From assembly GCA_018238625.1 (NCBI GenBank), contig JABCSY010000085.1, positions 1 to 18,195 on the forward strand: a stretch of 18,195 nt of DNA, in the 5' to 3' direction. The position numbers and the translations under genes are program-made. The stretch comes from Promethearchaeota archaeon. Its GTDB lineage: Archaea > Asgardarchaeota > Lokiarchaeia > Sigyniarchaeales > SOKP01. Within the stretch, counting starts at the first letter, position 1; every line of letters starts with the position of its first letter. The notes under the pieces are model-generated. The model saw only the letters and a program-made list of their open reading frames with translations. It was not told the origin of the DNA and made no database searches. Positions 2,935 through 11,605 of the stretch are shown piece after piece.

Positions 2935-5900
2935 TTAATTTGATTCAAAACTTTTGTTTAACCTAACTGTGAATATAGATCCTCGATTTTTCCCTTCTGA
3001 TTCAACAGAAATAGAACCCTTATGTAAATCAATAATTTCTTTAGAAATAAATAAACCTAATCCTGTACCCTCAATATCTACATTCATGCGCTGACCGTAT
3101 CTCTCAATTTTCCCAAATTTACTAAACAATCTATCCATTTCTCCTAAAGTTAGTCCAACTCCCGTGTCCTGTACTGACATAAAAACATTATCCTCATCCT
3201 GGCTTAAAGCTACTTTTACTGAGCCTTTGGGAGGTGTGTTTTTAATTGCGTTAGATAGAAGATTGGTTATCACTTGTTCAATTCTCAATTTATCAATTTT
3301 GCATATTATATTCTCCAAAATATGAAGAGATATTTCAATTTCCCGTTCTCTAGCGAAATACATGATATCCTCCACGCATTCCTTAATAATTTTAGAGATG
3401 TCATGTTCTTTTAAATCTAAAACTAAATAGTTTGATTCAATTATGGAAATATCTAACAAGTTTTCAACTAACTTTTTAAGTCGGGAACCCCCTTTATAAA
3501 TCATCTCTACAAACTCTAATGCCTCAGCACTAATCTCATTTTTATGAAGATTTAATAAAATCTGAGCTCCACCATATATCGAGTTAAGAGGCGTCTTCAA
3601 TTCATGAGATACACGTGAAACCAGTTCATTCTTCATCTTATTTAATTCTAATAATTTTTCATTTTCTTTTTCGATCACTAATTGTGCTTTCTTTTCTTTA
3701 GTAATATCATGAGCGATAGTTTCAATTAAGTTAAGCTCATTCTGTTTTAAAATCGAGATTTGCCAATTAATCCATGCAACACTCCCATCTCTTTTTTTAA
3801 TCATTAAATCTCTCGGTTTTGCTTTAATACCTTTAAGAAGGGCGTAATACGTGTTTTTGATTAGTTGAATTTGATCAAGGGTAAAAACATCGAAATCCTG
3901 GAATTTTCTTCCAATAATTTCATCTGCTCGAAATCCGAAGATTTTCTCAGAAGCTTGATTTTGTTCTAAGATAAAACCCTTCTCATCTGTAAGTACAATC
4001 GCAGTGGGAGCGTTTTCATAGACAATCCTAAACATTTCTTCTGATTCTTTCAATTTTTGTTCAGTCTTTTTACGTTCGTTAATATCTCGATAAACAAGCA
4101 AGTATTTCTGTTGTCCTTGCTCATCTTTGAAGCATCTAATCTTGACTTCAAACCAAATATAATTGCCATTTTTATGCTTTAATCGCGACTCATGAAAACC
4201 TTCTCCCGTTTTAAACACTTTCATCATGAATCTATTAATGTTTCTGTAATCGTCAGGATGATTAAAGTAGATGTCCTGTTTATTGAGTAATTCTTCTTTT
4301 GAATACCCCAAAACCGTCTCATGAGTAGCTTCGTTTAGAAACTCGATCTCAAAATCTTTATTAAGCACGCGTATCAAATCATTTGCATTTTCTGTAATGA
4401 GCCGATATTTTGTTTCAGAATCCTTCAATCTAAGTTCTGCTAATTTACGATCAGAAATTTCTTTTATTGTTGAAATAAATCCAATGATGTTTCCCTTATC
4501 ATCAAAGTAATTTTTAGAAACACTCGAAATCCAGATATATTCGTTTTCTAAAGTTAAAATTCGGAACTCTAATACATTATCAAAATTAAATTTCTTCTTT
4601 AAAACATCTATATAAAAATCTTTTAGTTGCTGAACATCCTCCTCATGGATGTATTCAAATAATCGAGAAGTGCTATTAATAATTCTGCCTTTAAGTATTC
4701 TCGAAAGTTGAGGGGAAACATATTTAATTTTTCCTTCTAATCCAACGATTACAATTGCCTCCTTGGTATTTTCTATTATATTCCTAAATTTTGCTTCAGA
4801 CTCTCGAAACTTAACCTCAGATAGTTTTTTCTCAGTTATATCTTGGAGTATTACTTGATAATATCTCTCATCGTCAATGTCAACGATTGAACTCTCCCAG
4901 TAAAACCAAATAATCGTGTCATCAGATTTAATTATCTTAAATTCTATAGAACCATCAATCTTACCCTTACGTATTGCCTTATACCTTTTCATAAAAAGTT
5001 TTAATAACTCATCTGAATTCTTTAATAGCTTAATTATATCGATAAAACTTTTACCTACTATATCATTTGGAGATAAGGTTGAGAACTTTTTAATTAAGGT
5101 TGAGTTAGTACTAATTAAATTTCCTTTTGAATCAAATATCATGATACCGAAAGGAGACTTGTCAAAAAGATGCCTGAACTTGGCTTCTGATTGCTTTAAT
5201 AGGACTTCGGCCTTCTTTCTCCTTGAAATATCTTCAATCATAATTTCCACGAATTGTTTTTCACCGATAGCTACTCGGTTAGCTTGAATGCTCACCCAAT
5301 AAAGGTTTAAACTATTTTGTTTAAGTTTGAATTCGAATGGACTAAAAGATCCTTTCATCAAAAAATCCTTAAATTTGCTTTCTAAAATTTTCATGTCATC
5401 TTGGTTCAATATTTCTATATCCCTAAAATGCTTCCCAATTAATTGATCTTTACCAAATTTCAAATATTTCAAAGCTGTTCTATTCAGACTTACAAATCTT
5501 CCTGAAGCATCAAGAAGCAATATGAGATAAGGTGAATGCTCAAAAAGGCTCCTAAATTTAACTTCTGATTCTTCAATCTGAATTGATTTTGTAATGTCTC
5601 GTGAAATAAAAATTATTTTAAATTCTCCATTTTTTTGTTTGAAAAGATTAGCTTTAGCTTCAAGCCAGATATAATGGCCCTGTTTATGTTTAATTCTAAA
5701 TTTTCTGGTGACGTCTCCAGATATCAGCCCCCCTTTAATTGCTGAAACTGCTAGAGTAATATCGTCAGGATGGACAAAATCACGTGGACGTTTACCAATT
5801 ATATCCTCTTCAGTATATCCTAGCACTTTAAGATATGCTGATTTATTTATGAATTCATGTTTAAAATTTTTATTCAAAACCGCGAATAGTTCATTAGTGT

Positions 5901-5997
5901 TTTCAATAATAAATTGATAAATATCTTCTATGTTTTCGGGCTTTGCTTCAAAAACATTATGATTTTCGGAACGTTCTAAAAAATTCACTCTTAGCAT
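2935..5997 (-). CDS. Soluble multi-PAS (six PAS/PAC) sensor histidine kinase
   Basis: Six units, most starting SExKF/YR..E and each ending in DIT/DIS/EIS/DIN. These are followed by HisKA (SHELKTPLN) and HATPase boxes (NLLSNAIK, DTGVG, FSKF, GTGLGL). No transmembrane segment or receiver domain seen. Confidence 0.95.
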   Translation of the reverse strand: MLRVNFLERSENHNVFEAKPENIEDIYQFIIENTNELFAVLNKNFKHEFINKSAYLKVLGYTEEDIIGKRPRDFVHPDDITLAVSAIKGGLISGDVTRKFRIKHKQGHYIWLEAKANLFKQKNGEFKIIFISRDITKSIQIEESEVKFRSLFEHSPYLILLLDASGRFVSLNRTALKYLKFGKDQLIGKHFRDIEILNQDDMKILESKFKDFLMKGSFSPFEFKLKQNSLNLYWVSIQANRVAIGEKQFVEIMIEDISRRKKAEVLLKQSEAKFRHLFDKSPFGIMIFDSKGNLISTNSTLIKKFSTLSPNDIVGKSFIDIIKLLKNSDELLKLFMKRYKAIRKGKIDGSIEFKIIKSDDTIIWFYWESSIVDIDDERYYQVILQDITEKKLSEVKFRESEAKFRNIIENTKEAIVIVGLEGKIKYVSPQLSRILKGRIINSTSRLFEYIHEEDVQQLKDFYIDVLKKKFNFDNVLEFRILTLENEYIWISSVSKNYFDDKGNIIGFISTIKEISDRKLAELRLKDSETKYRLITENANDLIRVLNKDFEIEFLNEATHETVLGYSKEELLNKQDIYFNHPDDYRNINRFMMKVFKTGEGFHESRLKHKNGNYIWFEVKIRCFKDEQGQQKYLLVYRDINERKKTEQKLKESEEMFRIVYENAPTAIVLTDEKGFILEQNQASEKIFGFRADEIIGRKFQDFDVFTLDQIQLIKNTYYALLKGIKAKPRDLMIKKRDGSVAWINWQISILKQNELNLIETIAHDITKEKKAQLVIEKENEKLLELNKMKNELVSRVSHELKTPLNSIYGGAQILLNLHKNEISAEALEFVEMIYKGGSRLKKLVENLLDISIIESNYLVLDLKEHDISKIIKECVEDIMYFAREREIEISLHILENIICKIDKLRIEQVITNLLSNAIKNTPPKGSVKVALSQDEDNVFMSVQDTGVGLTLGEMDRLFSKFGKIERYGQRMNVDIEGTGLGLFISKEIIDLHKGSISVESEGKNRGSIFTVRLNKSFESN

Positions 5998-6278: not shown

Positions 6279-8468
6279 CTACCAAGAAAGCCCTTTAATA
6301 AATTTTAAATCACTAATTAATCTTTTAGCTTCGTGATCTGGTACTTCCATGAAGGCATAAAATTCATTTTGCCAGAAAGCTTTTCCTGAAGTGTTAGAAC
6401 GAATATCTTCAGCAAATTTGATTGAATTTCTTACTGGTAAGAGTACTTCTATTATTGCTTGATAGTCCTTTTCTTGGTTGACATTTTTTATTTTTGCAGA
6501 ATACTTAGAAAGCAATGAAAGCGTATTTTTTATGTAATCTGGTGGTAATTGAATAATTGTATGGTATATAGGTTCAAGTAGGATAAGTCCAGAATCGTTT
6601 AGAGCTTTTTTAATGGCATCGTAAAACATTGCGGATAATTCTGTAAACGCATTTTCTTCGTCAAGCCTATCTACGACGAGATCTTCAATCATAACTTTTA
6701 GACCTGTTAGTTTTTCGCCAGATAGAGGACCATTTAATAGAATTTTATCAATAATTTCTAAAATTGTATCTTTCAAGAATTGGTTTAAATCATCTTTTAA
6801 ACTATAAATCAAAACATTATTAGTATTGTAATACGTCCAAAAGTCTTGGATTTCATCCGTTGTTAAATTTGTAAATTCTTCTAACAATTCTTTCAATCTT
6901 GATACTGGTTTTATAGACTTAAAATCATGAGTCCGGAAGAACCGGCTTGTTTTATCGTTTAATAGTTCTATTCTAATTTTTAGCGAACTTTGTTGGTTTG
7001 GTGATTCTACAGCTATAGTAGAAGAAGCGTATCTGCAAGATTCTTTAAAGACCGCCCTTGGTTCTGACGTTGAAATCCCAACGCCACGTTTTTCAATTTC
7101 ATTTGCTGTAATTTCAAGATGTAAAGGACCCATACCTGAGAGGAGGAATTCGCCGTTTTCTTCGTTTATTTCAAATAACAAATTAGGATCTTCGATTAGT
7201 ATGTTTTCGATGAGTTCTTTCATTTTATCTAAATCTCTTAGATATTCCGGTTCGATTGATACCGTTACGACGGGAGTAGAAACATATTTCACGTTTTCAA
7301 ATGGAATCATTTTATCAATATAATTCTTATTAATCAAAGTCTCGCCGCTTTTTACTTGTTTTAAACCTTCTATAGCAACGATGTTTCCAACAGGTATTTC
7401 TTCAACTTGCTCTCTTCTTTGACCCATGAAAATTGCGGTTTTTCGAATTGTATCGAAATTATTTTCTCTTAATAAAAATACTTCCTCCTTATTGAAACAA
7501 TTTCCGGAAAATATTCTTCCAGTTGCGACCAAACTGTGCTTATCTGCTTGTACTTTGCTCAAACATATTATTAATGGTCCATTTGGATCGCAACTAGTCA
7601 TAGCTTTTCCAACTTCAGATGTCAAATCTCCACCCCAAATCTTGCTTATTCTGTATTTCTGAGCTTCAATAGGATTAGGGAGGTGATCGACAACCATTTC
7701 TAGTATTGCGTTGTGTATAGGAAAATAAACAGCTAAATCAGCATAGGTTTCTTTAGTGTACGTTTCTTTTTGATATCGCGATCTAATATCTGAAAACTTT
7801 AGCTCGTTATTTTCTAAAATATTTAGTGTAAACCCCCATTTATGGAGCGCTGAGCCGAACGCAACGTTTCCATCGGCAGGAGATACTTGCCACTCTTTTT
7901 TGAACGGTTTATCTGCGTATCTTTTAATAAGCGTATTAAAATCTTTAATAATCCTCGTATATTTTTTTCTTATTTGTTCATCTGTTAGCTTTAATTCTCG
8001 GATGAGACGGTCTACTTTATTAATATAAAGTACTGGTTTCACTCCTTCCTGTAGAGCTTGTTTAATAACTGTTTCAGATTGAGTTATTATTTCCTCGACA
8101 GCATCAACAACTACAACGACGCCATCTATTAACCTTAAAGCACGAGTAACTTTGCCACTAAAATCTAAATGGCCTGGTGTATCAACAAGATTTATTAGAA
8201 ATGGGTCGTGGTCTTTAAGAGATTTTTCATAGTATAATGAAATATTAGTAGATTTCATGGTAATTCCACGTCTTTGTTCTTCTTCTAAATAATCTAAGGC
8301 ACGTGCTTCACCTGCTAAATCGGGTGAAAGTAAACCTGCTTCACTCAAAAGAGAGTCGCTTAGCGTTGTTTTACCATGGTCTATATGTCCCACTAATCCA
8401 ATGTTTCTAATGTTCTGAGTCTTCTCCATCATGTTTAGAATCTCAGAAATCTCCTTCCGACGAGGCAT
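6279..8468 (-). CDS. Translation elongation factor 2 paralog (aEF-2p-like) lacking the diphthamide motif
   Basis: Intact G domain (GHIDHGKTT, RGIT, DTPGH, NKVD, GSAL) and GMGPLHLE at full EF-2 length. Domain IV is divergent: LVVDRLDEENAFTEL replaces the canonical LHEDxxHRG loop. Confidence 0.9.
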   Translation of the reverse strand: MPRRKEISEILNMMEKTQNIRNIGLVGHIDHGKTTLSDSLLSEAGLLSPDLAGEARALDYLEEEQRRGITMKSTNISLYYEKSLKDHDPFLINLVDTPGHLDFSGKVTRALRLIDGVVVVVDAVEEIITQSETVIKQALQEGVKPVLYINKVDRLIRELKLTDEQIRKKYTRIIKDFNTLIKRYADKPFKKEWQVSPADGNVAFGSALHKWGFTLNILENNELKFSDIRSRYQKETYTKETYADLAVYFPIHNAILEMVVDHLPNPIEAQKYRISKIWGGDLTSEVGKAMTSCDPNGPLIICLSKVQADKHSLVATGRIFSGNCFNKEEVFLLRENNFDTIRKTAIFMGQRREQVEEIPVGNIVAIEGLKQVKSGETLINKNYIDKMIPFENVKYVSTPVVTVSIEPEYLRDLDKMKELIENILIEDPNLLFEINEENGEFLLSGMGPLHLEITANEIEKRGVGISTSEPRAVFKESCRYASSTIAVESPNQQSSLKIRIELLNDKTSRFFRTHDFKSIKPVSRLKELLEEFTNLTTDEIQDFWTYYNTNNVLIYSLKDDLNQFLKDTILEIIDKILLNGPLSGEKLTGLKVMIEDLVVDRLDEENAFTELSAMFYDAIKKALNDSGLILLEPIYHTIIQLPPDYIKNTLSLLSKYSAKIKNVNQEKDYQAIIEVLLPVRNSIKFAEDIRSNTSGKAFWQNEFYAFMEVPDHEAKRLISDLKFIKGLSW

Positions 8469-8560
8469 TCTTACTTAATTCTCTTGTAAATTATTAATAA
8501 TATATTATTAAACCATGATTGATTTGATTAAAATTTTAGGTTTATTTGAAAGTAATAGGA

Positions 8561-8666
8561 GCGGGAAATGAAATAATCTCATTACTCAAGATCTTCTTCA
8601 TTAAGTTATGGAAAATACCAATACTTTCAGTTGGGTCAGAGCTTTCAACGAAAAATCATTTCCCGC
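8561..8666 (-). ncRNA. Candidate box C/D guide sRNA; predicted target C34 of tRNA-Leu(CAA)
   Basis: Perfect 11-bp terminal stem GCGGGAAATGA/TCATTTCCCGC. Minus-strand order: degenerate C (UUGAAAG, 8648-8642), guide, D' CUGA (8630-8627), hairpin, C' AUGAAGA (8601-8595), 12-nt guide AGAUCUUGAGUA, D AUGA (8582-8579). The second guide is antisense to ACUCAAGAUCU, a Leu(CAA) anticodon arm. Confidence 0.68.
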
Positions 8667-8684
8667 ATATTTAAATTATTACAA

Positions 8685-9320
8685 TTATAAGACAACATCA
8701 CCATCGATCCTTACAATTCTTCCATCGACATGCAACCGTTTATCGCAATATAATTCTATCGCTTTAGGAAAGATTTTATGCTCCCATTCTAAAACTCTTG
8801 GTCCTAAAGTTTTTTCTGTGTCAGTATCGTACACAGGAACACATTTTTGGATGATGATGGGACCATGATCCGATTGAGGATCCACAAAATGAATTGTAGT
8901 ACCTGAAACCTTCACGCCGTATTCCAAAACATCTTTGTGAGCGTGCATGCCTTTGAAAGAAGGTAAAAGAGCCGGATGGATATTCATAACGTTCCCATTG
9001 AAAGCATCGATAAAACTTTGGCTTACTAATCTCATATAACCGACTAAAACAACTAATTCACAATCGTATTTTTTTAGTACAGCTATCATCTTTTTGTCGA
9101 ATTCTTCTCTGGGGAGATGGAGAAACTGATTAGATTCAATTAATTCACAAGGTATGTTATGATTTTTCGCTCGTTCCATGCAAAATGCTCCAGTTTTGTT
9201 GCAAATAAGTACTTTTACATCCGCCTTATTTTTCAAAATCCCTTCCTCGCATGCTTTAATTATTGCTTCGAAGTTACTCCCAGAACCAGAGGCGATCGCA
9301 CCTATTTTTAATTTTTTCAT
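8685..9320 (-). CDS. purN: Phosphoribosylglycinamide formyltransferase
   Basis: Motifs ASGSGSNFEAI, LVGYMRLV, MNIHPALLPSFKG, SGTTIHFVD..DHGPIIIQ and EHKIFP. Confidence 0.97.
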   Translation of the reverse strand: MKKLKIGAIASGSGSNFEAIIKACEEGILKNKADVKVLICNKTGAFCMERAKNHNIPCELIESNQFLHLPREEFDKKMIAVLKKYDCELVVLVGYMRLVSQSFIDAFNGNVMNIHPALLPSFKGMHAHKDVLEYGVKVSGTTIHFVDPQSDHGPIIIQKCVPVYDTDTEKTLGPRVLEWEHKIFPKAIELYCDKRLHVDGRIVRIDGDVVL

Positions 9321-9694: not shown

Positions 9695-11605
9695 ATGAGT
9701 TTCGAAGGAGAACTACAAAGAATTAAGGATCAAATCATTTCACATTTACCTCCCGGTATCAAGGTTAAAAAAATAGAATTTGAGGGTCCTGAAATAGCCG
9801 TTTATTCTGAAAATGATAATTTGGATCTTATTGAAAGTTCAGATATTTTAAAAGAGTTAGCGAAAACTATGCGCAAAAGGGTAGTTTTTCGCTGGAACGC
9901 TGAGAAGCGAAAGGATCCATCTGAAACAGAAGATTACATAAGGAATTTAATAGTTGAAAACGCTGAAATCACCAATATTGAATTTGATCATACTCGTGGA
10001 GAAGTTATTATAGAATCGGTAAAACCAGGGTTGGTTATTGGAAAAAAAGGCGTAAATTTAAAGGAAATTCGAATGAACACTTTCTGGCAACCAAAAACGA
10101 TAAGAACGCCACCGTTGGAATCGAGAACCCTTAAATTAATTAGAGGGATGTTGAGTAAAGAAAGACAAAACCAAAAAGATATACTCTTGAATATTGGAAA
10201 GAGAATTCACCGCCCTACCATTTTTAGAGATTTAGATATTCGCCTAACTGCCTTAGGTGGTTTTAGAGAGGTTGGTAGATCGTGTATCTTAATGCAAACA
10301 AGAGATAGTAATATTCTTCTTGATGTAGGGTTAAATGTCGGCAACAAAAGCGATCCATTTCCAAACTTTGATATTCCAGAGTTTTCAATAAGGGATTTAG
10401 ACGCCGTAATAGTCTCTCATGCCCACTTAGATCATTGTGGAATGGTACCTTTTTTATTTAAGTATGGATATAAAGGTCCCGTATATTCTACGCTCCCTAC
10501 ACGAAACCTATCGACCATGTTGCAATTAGACTTCGTTCAGATTTGCGAAAAAGAAGGTATACCGGGTCCTTATTCTAAAAGGGATGTAAAAAGCGCCGTA
10601 CTCCATACGATTCCCCTTTCATGGGGGAAAGTTACGGATATCGCTCCCGATATTAAGTTAACACTTCACAATTCTGGGCACATATTAGGCTCTTCAATAA
10701 TTCATTTACATTTCGGAAAAGGTGGATTCAATTTTATATACACGGGAGATTTTAAATATCAAAAAACTAGACTTCTAGAAAAGGCGGCTGTAAAATTTCC
10801 TAGAGTTGAAGCCCTACTTATTGAATCAACTTATGGAGGTCCTCAAGATCGCATCCCAAGTAGACAAGATTCTGAAAGAGACCTTAGACAAATTTTAAAT
10901 TCGACGATCAAGAGAGGCGGCAAAATTTTGATTCCTGTATTAGCAGTAGGACGAGCCCAAGAGCTAATAATCGTGTTAGAAGAGTTCATATCAAAGGGTA
11001 TTATTGATCATGTCCCAATCTTTTTAGACGGATTAATCTCAGAAGCAACAGCTATACATACAGCAAACCCCGATTTTCTTAGTTCTGACTTAAGAGAAAA
11101 AATATTACATCAGGGCAAAAACCCATTTTTAAGCGATTTTTTCACGACTATTTCTGGTCATGAGGAAAGGAACGATGTAATTATGGGTGGACCTTGTATT
11201 ATCTTAGCTACGAGCGGTATGTTAATCGGAGGACCTTCAGTTCAATATTTAAGAAGGTTAGCCGAAGATAAGAAAAATTCTCTTGTATTCGTATCTTACC
11301 AAGTAAATGGAACTTTGGGAAGCAGAGTTCAGCGTGGTTTCCGCGAAATTCAATACACCAATGAGAAAGGAAGGACACAGCTTATCCGCCTGAACATTAA
11401 CATATTCACACTTGAGGGTTTTTCCGGTCATTCGAGTCGAAGCCAAATTTCGCAATTCTTGCGTAGAATTCAGCCCAGACCAAAATTAGTTATAATAAAC
11501 CACGGCGAAGAAAGCAAATGTGTAAGCTTGTCGACGATGATACATAAAAAACTAAGAAAAGCCACCAAAGCTCCAAGAAACAGAGAGTCTCTTTCGCTCA
11601 GGTAA
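9695..11605 (+). CDS. aCPSF1: Archaeal CPSF1 / FttA beta-CASP ribonuclease (KH-KH-MBL-betaCASP), transcription termination factor
   Basis: 636 aa. N-terminal KH region (EFEGPEI, KPGLVIGKKG), LGGFREVGRSC, SHAHLDH, SGHILGS, YTGD, IESTYG, FSGHS and NHGE. Confidence 0.97.
   Translation: MSFEGELQRIKDQIISHLPPGIKVKKIEFEGPEIAVYSENDNLDLIESSDILKELAKTMRKRVVFRWNAEKRKDPSETEDYIRNLIVENAEITNIEFDHTRGEVIIESVKPGLVIGKKGVNLKEIRMNTFWQPKTIRTPPLESRTLKLIRGMLSKERQNQKDILLNIGKRIHRPTIFRDLDIRLTALGGFREVGRSCILMQTRDSNILLDVGLNVGNKSDPFPNFDIPEFSIRDLDAVIVSHAHLDHCGMVPFLFKYGYKGPVYSTLPTRNLSTMLQLDFVQICEKEGIPGPYSKRDVKSAVLHTIPLSWGKVTDIAPDIKLTLHNSGHILGSSIIHLHFGKGGFNFIYTGDFKYQKTRLLEKAAVKFPRVEALLIESTYGGPQDRIPSRQDSERDLRQILNSTIKRGGKILIPVLAVGRAQELIIVLEEFISKGIIDHVPIFLDGLISEATAIHTANPDFLSSDLREKILHQGKNPFLSDFFTTISGHEERNDVIMGGPCIILATSGMLIGGPSVQYLRRLAEDKKNSLVFVSYQVNGTLGSRVQRGFREIQYTNEKGRTQLIRLNINIFTLEGFSGHSSRSQISQFLRRIQPRPKLVIINHGEESKCVSLSTMIHKKLRKATKAPRNRESLSLR

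Follow-up and report, generated by a model that had tools for sequence, protein, structure and literature searches.

The element between the formyltransferase and elongation factor 2 genes

The DNA analysed here, referred to as the window, is a stretch of 18,195 nucleotides (nt) on contig JABCSY010000085.1 of a Promethearchaeota archaeon, and the window's own genome assembly (4.29 Mb in 201 contigs) is designated G000. On the minus strand of the window, a PurN-like formyltransferase gene (8685..9320; Pfam PF00551, E = 3e-52) and the gene for elongation factor 2 (EF-2; 6279..8468; Pfam GTP_EFTU, EFG_III, and EFG_C) flank an element of 106 nt, the minus strand of 8666..8561, which has a box C/D-type architecture by sequence parse. 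The stop codon of the formyltransferase gene lies 18 nt before this RNA, and the start codon of EF-2 lies 92 nt after it. An earlier note on the same DNA had interpreted the element as an unannotated guide RNA for 2'-O-methylation of the wobble base C34 of tRNA-Leu(CAA). As judged from its sequence and those of its relatives, the RNA most likely directs methylation of this first anticodon base, and its second guide appears to be matched to introns of further tRNA genes.

Read 5' to 3' on the minus strand, the element opens with the 5' arm of a closing stem, GCGGGAAAUGA (8656..8666), which pairs perfectly over 11 base pairs (bp) with the 3' arm, UCAUUUCCCGC (8561..8571). Inside the stem follow, in order, a degenerate C box, UUGAAAG, in which only xUGA is retained (8642..8648), a D' guide of 11 nt, CUCUGACCCAA (8631..8641), the D' box CUGA (8627..8630), a D'-C' hairpin, AAGU-AUUGG-loop-CCAUA-ACUU (8603..8626), the C' box AUGAAGA (8595..8601), a D guide of 12 nt, AGAUCUUGAGUA (8583..8594), and a degenerate D box, AUGA (8579..8582). 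Both this parse and the 11-bp closing stem are exactly as the earlier note gave them. The inner C'/D' motif is well formed, with CUGA, the 4-bp stem AAGU/ACUU of the hairpin, a bulge of 3 nt (AAU), and GAAGA; the hairpin provides this inner kink-turn with its canonical stem. The spacers of 11 nt from C to D' and 12 nt from C' to D have the same lengths in other families.

The element is single-copy in G000 (1 match in a whole-genome search). Its folding energy is -29.0 kcal/mol, compared with a mean of -17.5 for shuffled sequences (z = -3.6), and 1 of 200 shuffles folded as well. Since the plus strand folds equally well (z = -3.64), the folding energy gives no choice of strand.

Among the other genomes of the genus, the element was found in 21 of the 24 searched (E < 1e-10). 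An alignment of 22 genus copies shows little or no change in the closing stem, the GA of the boxes, UCUGACCCA with the CUGA that follows it, GAUCUUGAGU within the D guide, and the UGA of the D box; of these, the closing stem is nearly and UCUGACCCA fully invariant. The linkers and the D'-C' hairpin diverge freely, the hairpin in both sequence and length. The GA dinucleotides, which would form the tandem sheared pairs, are retained in all four boxes of all 22 copies. They occupy positions 3-4 of the C box. In the C' box, UGA-GA is invariant and position 5 is A, U, or C, and four copies have the canonical UGAUGA. The D box retains UGA throughout (AUGA in 21 copies, UUGA in 1). The D' box has the variants CAGA and CCGA in family f2. 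For the D guide, positions 2-11, which make up GAUCUUGAGU, are invariant in 21/21 sequences from three families, and positions 1 (A/U) and 12 (A/C/U) vary, which is the pattern expected for a 10-bp guide duplex. The retention of boxes and guide in relatives, which the earlier note had proposed as a check, is thus borne out.

The proposed structure is also seen in the alignment, in which 92.5% of the cells were paired, versus 42-54% when the partners were slid by 1-3 columns. Both-side changes occur at four of the seven hairpin pairs (15 cells), and none of 500 shuffles reached the covariation score, so that the covariation which the earlier note suggested seeking in relatives is found in the D'-C' hairpin, with compensatory changes at 4 pairs. 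The closing stem shows no covariation within the genus because it is too conserved there. For the pair beside the outer kink-turn, inspection by eye gave mostly C-G, with G-C in L016, A-U in L019, and no pairing in L017 and L070, which is suggestive.

Some genus copies carry further changes. A tandem 8-nt duplication doubles the D box (AAUGAAUUAAUGAAG) of L017 (G005, 1508-1627), and the 5' linker of L019 and L070 is enlarged by additional hairpins or inserts. One genome, G008, has two diverged copies, G008:C51:365-513 and G008:C168:4743-4898, which are 94% and 89% identical to that of the window; the bin may mix strains, or the element may truly be duplicated.

tRNA-Leu(CAA) as the predicted target, and the homologues of the guide RNA

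tRNA-Leu(CAA) was reported in G000 neither by ARAGORN (12 genes when introns were disallowed and 19 when they were allowed) nor by the Rfam tRNA model (33 matches). A profile made from three intron-less leucine tRNAs recovered two further leucine genes. The tRNA-Leu(CAA) gene, whose location the earlier note had named as a way of checking its proposal, lies at G000:C22:26291-26459(-), has two introns, and carries ACUCAAGAUC; tRNA-Leu(UAA), also with two introns, lies at G000:C52:6382-6531(-). In each of these two genes, one intron is in the D arm and the other is in or beside the anticodon loop. Among genus members, the intron positions of tRNA-Leu(CAA) vary among the anticodon arm, the D arm, and the T loop. 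With introns allowed, ARAGORN also called a 'tRNA-Stop(tta)' at G000:C22:52327-52438 and a 'tRNA-Pyl(cta)' at G000:C177:10050-10153, which are probably mis-parsed intron-containing tRNAs rather than suppressors, because unusual introns are many in G000.

The spliced anticodon arm of tRNA-Leu(CAA) reads AUGGA-CUCAAGA-UCCAU, and its target stretch reads ACUCAAGAUCC. GAUCUUGAGU is complementary to A31-C40 in 10 consecutive Watson-Crick pairs, with C34 opposite position 5 of the guide, the fifth base upstream of the D box (D+5), as the earlier note had deduced from the guide sequence and as now holds on the tRNA of the genome itself. The A31-U39 pair and C40 were likewise foreseen correctly, and 10 of the 11 expected pairs form; the eleventh, which assumed U41, fails since position 41 is C. 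The exact 11-mer expected in the target, ACUCAAGAUCU, is without another copy in G000, as is ACTCAAGATCT anywhere in the assembly, and it is the 10-mer that is present. This 10-mer is uninterrupted in the gene, where the intron of the anticodon arm ends in A directly before C32.

The arm GGA-CUCAAGA-UCC is identical in 27 of 30 genus loci, and the search pattern missed the remaining 3. The D guide and its target are co-invariant, which is consistent with pairing and provides no covariation. Matches to a variant guide in G189/G193 and G343 (L146, L147) were set aside as unconvincing homologues, and a search of these genomes for tRNA-Leu(CAA), made for D-guide covariation, gave chance matches only. 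The genes for the modification machinery are present in G000, with fibrillarin (PF01269, 265.7 bits) at G000:C121:9780-10448 adjacent to Nop5 (PF01798, 208.7 bits) at G000:C121:10573-11247.

Beyond the genus, families of the same order retain both guides and differ in their closing stems. The stem is GGAAAUACUC/GAGUAUUUCC in family f2 and GUGAG..GCGC in family f4, in which the boxes are the canonical GUGAUGA and CUGA, and the C-box equivalents in other families are AUGAUxx or GUGAUGA at an equal distance from the D' box. The replacement of the whole closing stem between families indicates that this stem is a structure rather than a sequence signal.

The module was then defined for the phylum as UGAxGA, a 12-nt spacer with UCUUGAG at positions 3-9, and xUGA, with the reversed pattern as the control. 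It occurs in 107 of 400 phylum genomes and in 33 of 85 genera, and the reversed control occurs in none. Together with the 21 of 24 genus genomes, these counts establish that the element is more than chance. Most of the other families have a compact C/D RNA of ordinary form with UGAUGA and CUGA boxes, similar to the common C/D RNAs of 55-65 nt. The homologue in G071 shares the D guide, has a related D' guide, and reaches 46.7 bits against RF00095 (snoPyro_CD; cut-off 45); the window's copy reaches no Rfam family. In a species-representative collection, the canonical-box module was found in at least 120 stretches, from records titled Thermococcus, Nitrosopumilus and other Thaumarchaeota, Micrarchaeota, Thermoplasmata, Thermoproteota, Hadarchaeota, Methanobacteriota, and Heimdallarchaeota, the last of which fits the earlier assignment of the element as an Asgard tRNA-targeting small RNA (sRNA).

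These results support the reading of the element as a guide for C34 of tRNA-Leu(CAA) on five counts, namely, its architecture, the conservation of the guide, the canonical homologues, the machinery genes, and the match to the target. The guide RNA for tRNA-Leu(CAA) appears to be very old and widespread across archaeal phyla and many Asgard families; its form in the window is unusually long and has degenerate boxes. The predicted role is of a known kind and, on present evidence, ancient, and standard annotation overlooks this widespread RNA.

The surroundings of the element bear on a different explanation. In the genus, EF-2 lies downstream on the same strand at 19/19 loci, with purN upstream at 18/19, and in family f2 EF-2 lies downstream at four loci, in the one measured of which (L054) its start is ~20 nt past the RNA. 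The linkage of the RNA with EF-2 covers the window at 6279-8666 and the loci L054, L055, L064, L140, and L117-L124. In three other families, the gene adjoining the RNA is EF-2-like but distant (22-28% identity); in the two f13 loci checked, L117 and L118, it lies on the opposite strand. Farther out in the window lie a gene for an FttA/aCPSF1-type KH and beta-CASP nuclease, the archaeal transcription termination factor (9695-11605, plus strand), and one for a 1020-aa multi-PAS histidine kinase (2935-5997, minus strand).

Contigs X3 (depth 12.5) and X4 (depth 2), which come from RNA libraries of two studies and in which DNA carry-over is possible, span copies of the region that are 90-95% identical, and contigs X1 and X2, which are probably DNA, likewise span the region in related strains. 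These four contigs give no ends, strand, or level and thus speak neither for nor against a discrete transcript. Because the purN stop codon lies 18 nt upstream and the EF-2 start of L054 lies ~20 nt downstream, the RNA may be cut out of a neighbour's transcript, which is compatible with a guide function.

Given this arrangement, the element could instead be a cis-acting leader of the EF-2 mRNA, whose kink-turns would bind L7Ae or sense tRNA and thereby tune EF-2, with any guide role being secondary. The constant position of EF-2 in the genus and at the four f2 loci, the EF-2-like genes beside the RNA in several other families, and the run of the metatranscriptome contig X3 from the end of purN through the element into EF-2 all favour such a leader. 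However, about half of the homologues in other families (L111-L140) have no EF-2 or EF-2-like neighbour, the neighbours that are found there are distant paralogues, at least two of them on the opposite strand, and the canonical homologues resemble ordinary C/D RNAs. A leader would also leave unexplained the covariation of the D' guide with tRNA introns, which is described in the next section. We consider a leader function improbable.

Predicted pairing of the D' guide with tRNA introns

For the D' guide, no convincing site was found in the 16S rRNA of G000 or in the 23S rRNAs of G016 and G038. The best 23S match, UGGGUUAGAA in G016, was dropped as not common to G038. 23S rRNA was found neither in the G000 assembly nor within 19 kb downstream of the 16S gene, which lies at G000:C22:44763-46252 and is followed by an intron-containing tRNA. 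The core of the guide, UCUGACCCA, has no match in any rRNA or mature tRNA examined, and a search for matches split across tRNA introns gave nothing convincing.

In contrast to the earlier note, in which the D' guide stood as an ordinary spacer, this guide is complementary to, and covaries with, the introns of tRNA genes. The sequence GGGUCAGA preceded by A or U has 20 matches in G000. A single one of them falls within a structural RNA gene, namely in the intron of an elongator-type tRNA-Met(CAU) gene at G000:C111:334-471(-), where UGGGUCAGA is the complement of the D' guide. Among the tRNA-Met orthologues of the genus retrieved with their anticodon region, 15/15 introns have GGGUCAGA and 14/15 have UGGGUCAGA, and one genus genome keeps the motif even though its tRNA-Met intron is at another position.

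For family f2, the motif was found in the D-arm intron of tRNA-Leu(UAA), both in the closed genomes G038 and G032 and, overall, in 7 of 14 genomes, with 0 for the control. Family f13 provides the decisive comparison. The D' guide of G071 differs (GUCUAGCCCUUGA, with the complement AAGGGCTAGA), and in this closed genome AAGGGCTAGA has exactly 3 matches, one in the sRNA gene and one each in the introns of tRNA-Met and tRNA-Leu(UAA). The same three sites were found in G072, in addition to four random-looking matches.

A scan for tRNA-Met introns with the pattern AGACTCATAATC, 3-33 nt, and GGGYYAGA downstream of the anticodon loop gave matches in 104 of 400 phylum genomes and 0 for the control, and the motif fits the sRNA guide of each lineage. 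In family f1 (81/134 genomes), the intron motif GGGUCAGA faces the D' guide UCUGACCC, and in family f21 (4/6 genomes), GGGGUCAGA faces UCUGACCCC. In G071 and G072, the motif AAGGGCUAGA (GGGCUAGA) faces CUAGCCCUU (CUAGCCC), and in G082, AAGGGUUAGA (GGGUUAGA) faces CUAACCCUU (CUAACCC). The sRNA and the intron were compared within one genome for a handful of lineages, and related genomes are not independent. Because the changes are compensatory between two unlinked genes, the pairing of the D' guide with the introns, predicted from these alignments, is taken as real. Like the architecture, the conservation, and the complementarities, this covariation was computed directly. A degenerate pattern for G103/G104 was too loose to be used, with 137 matches, one of which, in G103, lies inside an intron-containing tRNA.

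The full-text literature on Asgard archaea, with subscription journals and supplements outside the search, gave no paper on such an RNA, and, as far as searched, the papers accessible within these bounds do not describe a D' guide that covaries with tRNA introns.

We consider it likely that the window's RNA is a trans-acting box C/D sRNA whose D guide would specify 2'-O-methylated C34 (Cm34) in tRNA-Leu(CAA) and whose D' guide would dock on the introns of the tRNA-Met and tRNA-Leu(UAA) precursors. The RNA would assemble with L7Ae, Nop5, and fibrillarin. GAUCUUGAGU and A31-C40 of tRNA-Leu(CAA) would form a 10-bp duplex that places wobble C34 five nt from the D box, and fibrillarin would methylate the ribose of C34 to give Cm34. 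The D' guide would pair with the intron motif of pre-tRNA-Met(CAU) or, in other families, of pre-tRNA-Leu(UAA). The D' duplex would thereby dock the particle, such that the same D guide might reach position 34 of the tRNA-Met and tRNA-Leu(UAA) precursors before splicing, despite an imperfect match. In this scheme, we infer that the RNA is transcribed as a discrete molecule and bound by the proteins, that each of the methylations takes place, and that docking offsets the mismatches.

The match of the D guide to these two additional tRNAs is close but imperfect. tRNA-Met shares A31-A35 and A38-C40 with the target (8 of 10 bases) and is mismatched at positions 36 and 37, and the sole difference in tRNA-Leu(UAA) is at position 34, where a G:U pair would form. 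In the pre-tRNA-Leu(UAA) of G071, the first two bases of the intron, UC, complete the D-guide duplex, where the mature tRNA has CC. In most families, 8-12 nt separate the D-guide target of tRNA-Met from the motif on its 3' side; in the tRNA-Leu(UAA) of G071, this distance is ~19 nt. This order would permit both guides of one RNA to pair simultaneously.

D-type modules for the anticodon loops of tRNA-Met, tRNA-Leu(UAA), and tRNA-Trp number 0, 0, and 0 in G000, versus 1 for tRNA-Leu(CAA). Among 151 sampled phylum genomes, a Met-type module is present in 3 and absent from 148, and one of the three looks canonical. It lies at G284:C87:1499-1520(-) in a 0.9-Mb genome of another family and reads UGAUGA-GGAUUAUGAGUG-CUGA, which would make a perfect guide for C34 of tRNA-Met. 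In G000, the intergenic stretch G000:C57:5694-5838 contains a perfect 10-mer complement to the anticodon arm of tRNA-Met followed by UUGA. This candidate guide for tRNA-Met, at G000:C57:5817, was rejected as chance because it is kept only in the three closest genomes. The stretch upstream of it, C57:5694-5811 (110 nt), is more widely kept in the genus and contains CUGA-AG-UGAAGA.

The intron pairing is open to another interpretation, in which the RNA would guide the methylation of tRNA-Leu(CAA) only and the D' guide would serve the methylation of the introns themselves, a chaperone or splicing-timer function, or the marking of excised introns. The role as a chaperone or splicing timer is the main alternative to docking. 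In favour of this interpretation, the covariation shows that the pairing is real, two mismatches with tRNA-Met are central in the D-guide duplex, and G284 has a canonical Met-type module. Intron methylation is, however, difficult to reconcile with the register of the D' guide, which differs between families such that no fixed intron nucleotide stands at D'+5. Furthermore, the tRNAs bearing the motif are those whose anticodon loops are most like the D-guide target, the spacing of the motif in both tRNA-Met and tRNA-Leu(UAA) permits the two duplexes together, and a dedicated Met module is lacking in nearly all of the sampled genomes. We regard a guide restricted to tRNA-Leu(CAA) as rather unlikely. 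That one C/D RNA would serve tRNA-Leu(CAA), tRNA-Leu(UAA), and elongator tRNA-Met through co-evolving docking sites in introns is put forward tentatively, its chances, as judged from the alignments, being somewhat below even.

Several observations weigh against the docking guide RNA that we favour. The two central mismatches in tRNA-Met, or the G:U pair at the target base in tRNA-Leu(UAA), might prevent methylation. The tRNA-Leu(UAA) intron of G000 has an imperfect copy of the motif only, GGGUCAAGA, and the motif of family f2 stands on the 5' rather than the 3' side of the anticodon. Depending on the family, 2, 3, or 4 nt lie between the D' box and the conserved CCC of the D' guide. For family f16, the complement of the 11-mer guide was found in the sRNA genes and at 2 coding sites only, with a pattern that is perhaps one base too long. 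Because G000 is without 23S rRNA, the exclusion of rRNA targets for the D' guide extends to the three rRNAs named above only. As for the RNA itself, the outer boxes are UUGAAAG and AUGA, versus the consensus RUGAUGA and CUGA, and the stem adjoining the outer kink-turn has only 2 bp before U:U mismatches separate it from the 11 bp. At the gathering score, Rfam reports tRNA-Gly only in the whole window and thus no family for this copy; at E up to 10, the window has 7 weak matches, all far from their cut-offs.

The outer boxes, the weak adjoining stem, and the missing Rfam match could also mean that the window's copy is a decaying relic that has lost its guiding function along with productive L7Ae binding by its outer boxes. 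A strict pattern search for double-guide C/D RNAs of canonical form, which found 0 in the 4.29 Mb of G000, points in the same direction. A relaxed C/D pattern gave 4 matches in G000, all of which resembled coding sequence and were discarded. The C/D RNAs of this lineage may have long inserts or degenerate boxes and may thus escape consensus searches; the degenerate boxes and the length of the RNAs may be why none was found. In opposition to decay, both guides and the four GA dinucleotides are invariant in 22 diverged copies in which the linkers and the hairpin are free to change, and such selection is not expected on a relic; the degenerate box style is, moreover, common to families f1 and f2. 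We judge decay to be highly improbable.

Comparison with known wobble methylation systems

Ribose methylation of the wobble position of tRNA-Leu and tRNA-Met occurs in all three domains of life, with proteins being used in bacteria and yeast, and guide RNAs in some archaea and humans. In Pyrococcus abyssi, C/D sRNAs have reportedly been predicted for position 34 of tRNA-Leu(CAA), tRNA-Leu(UAA), and elongator tRNA-Met, with a separate small RNA said to exist for each tRNA. The machinery, the target position 34, and the three tRNAs are thus common to the reported Pyrococcus system and the present one, and records titled Thermococcus carry the canonical module with an identical 10-nt guide. The two differ in that Pyrococcus reportedly uses one RNA per tRNA, whereas here a single RNA is perfect for tRNA-Leu(CAA) and would apparently reach the others through its intron-pairing guide. 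The window's copy is, in addition, twice as long as the Pyrococcus RNAs and has degenerate outer boxes and long stems. The name sR47, which the earlier note had given for the Pyrococcus precedent, was not found in PMC6313347.

In bacteria and yeast, TrmL and Trm7-Trm734, respectively, form Cm34 in tRNA-Leu(CAA) and a 2'-O-methylated U34 derivative in tRNA-Leu(UAA), as outlined in PMC5372725 and PMC4033218. According to these outlines, the enzymes treat the same pair of leucine tRNAs jointly, as proposed for the RNA studied here, but they are protein-only and act without a guide RNA.

In humans, C34 of elongator tRNA-Met(CAT) is methylated with the C/D RNAs SNORD97 and SCARNA97 (Vitali and Kiss, 2019, summarized in the Outlook PMC6601515). 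They are eukaryotic and nuclear, and intron docking is not described for them in that Outlook. If one RNA does serve all three tRNAs, RNA-guided formation of Cm34 in tRNA-Met, like that by SNORD97/SCARNA97, was already present in the archaeal relatives of eukaryotes.

The Haloferax volcanii sR-tMet (Joardar et al., 2011) is, in the summaries of PMC5372725 and PMC4033218, a C/D RNA that directs Cm34 and acts on the intron-containing pre-tRNA-Met. The likeness, as far as these summaries go, extends to the intron-containing elongator tRNA-Met precursor, to Cm34, and to an unusual C'/D' motif. The trait of the sR-tMet type that is found here is the predicted pairing of the D' guide with an intron-containing precursor, as suggested by covariation. 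sR-tMet is dedicated to tRNA-Met, whereas the present RNA has a D guide that is perfect for tRNA-Leu(CAA) and would form a separate, intronic D' duplex, a contrast drawn from the descriptions in those summaries only. For the window's RNA, methylation of C34 in tRNA-Met would require the D guide to act while pairing with 8 of the 10 bases.

In the euryarchaeal pre-tRNA-Trp, the intron itself acts as a C/D guide and directs Cm34 and Um39 (Clouet-d'Orval, 2001; Singh et al., 2004; as summarized in PMC4033218 and PMC5372725). Common to that system, so far as it is summarized there, and to the present proposal are an intron-dependent wobble methylation and two guide duplexes on one precursor. If the proposal is true, wobble methylation would be a selective reason for the retention of these tRNA introns in Asgard archaea. 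The joint change of the D' guide and the intron would then be a case of an intron serving as a landing pad for a modification machine, which bears on the persistence of archaeal tRNA introns. By the same summaries, the pre-tRNA-Trp intron is the guide, whereas here the intron would hold the target of a guide that is encoded elsewhere.

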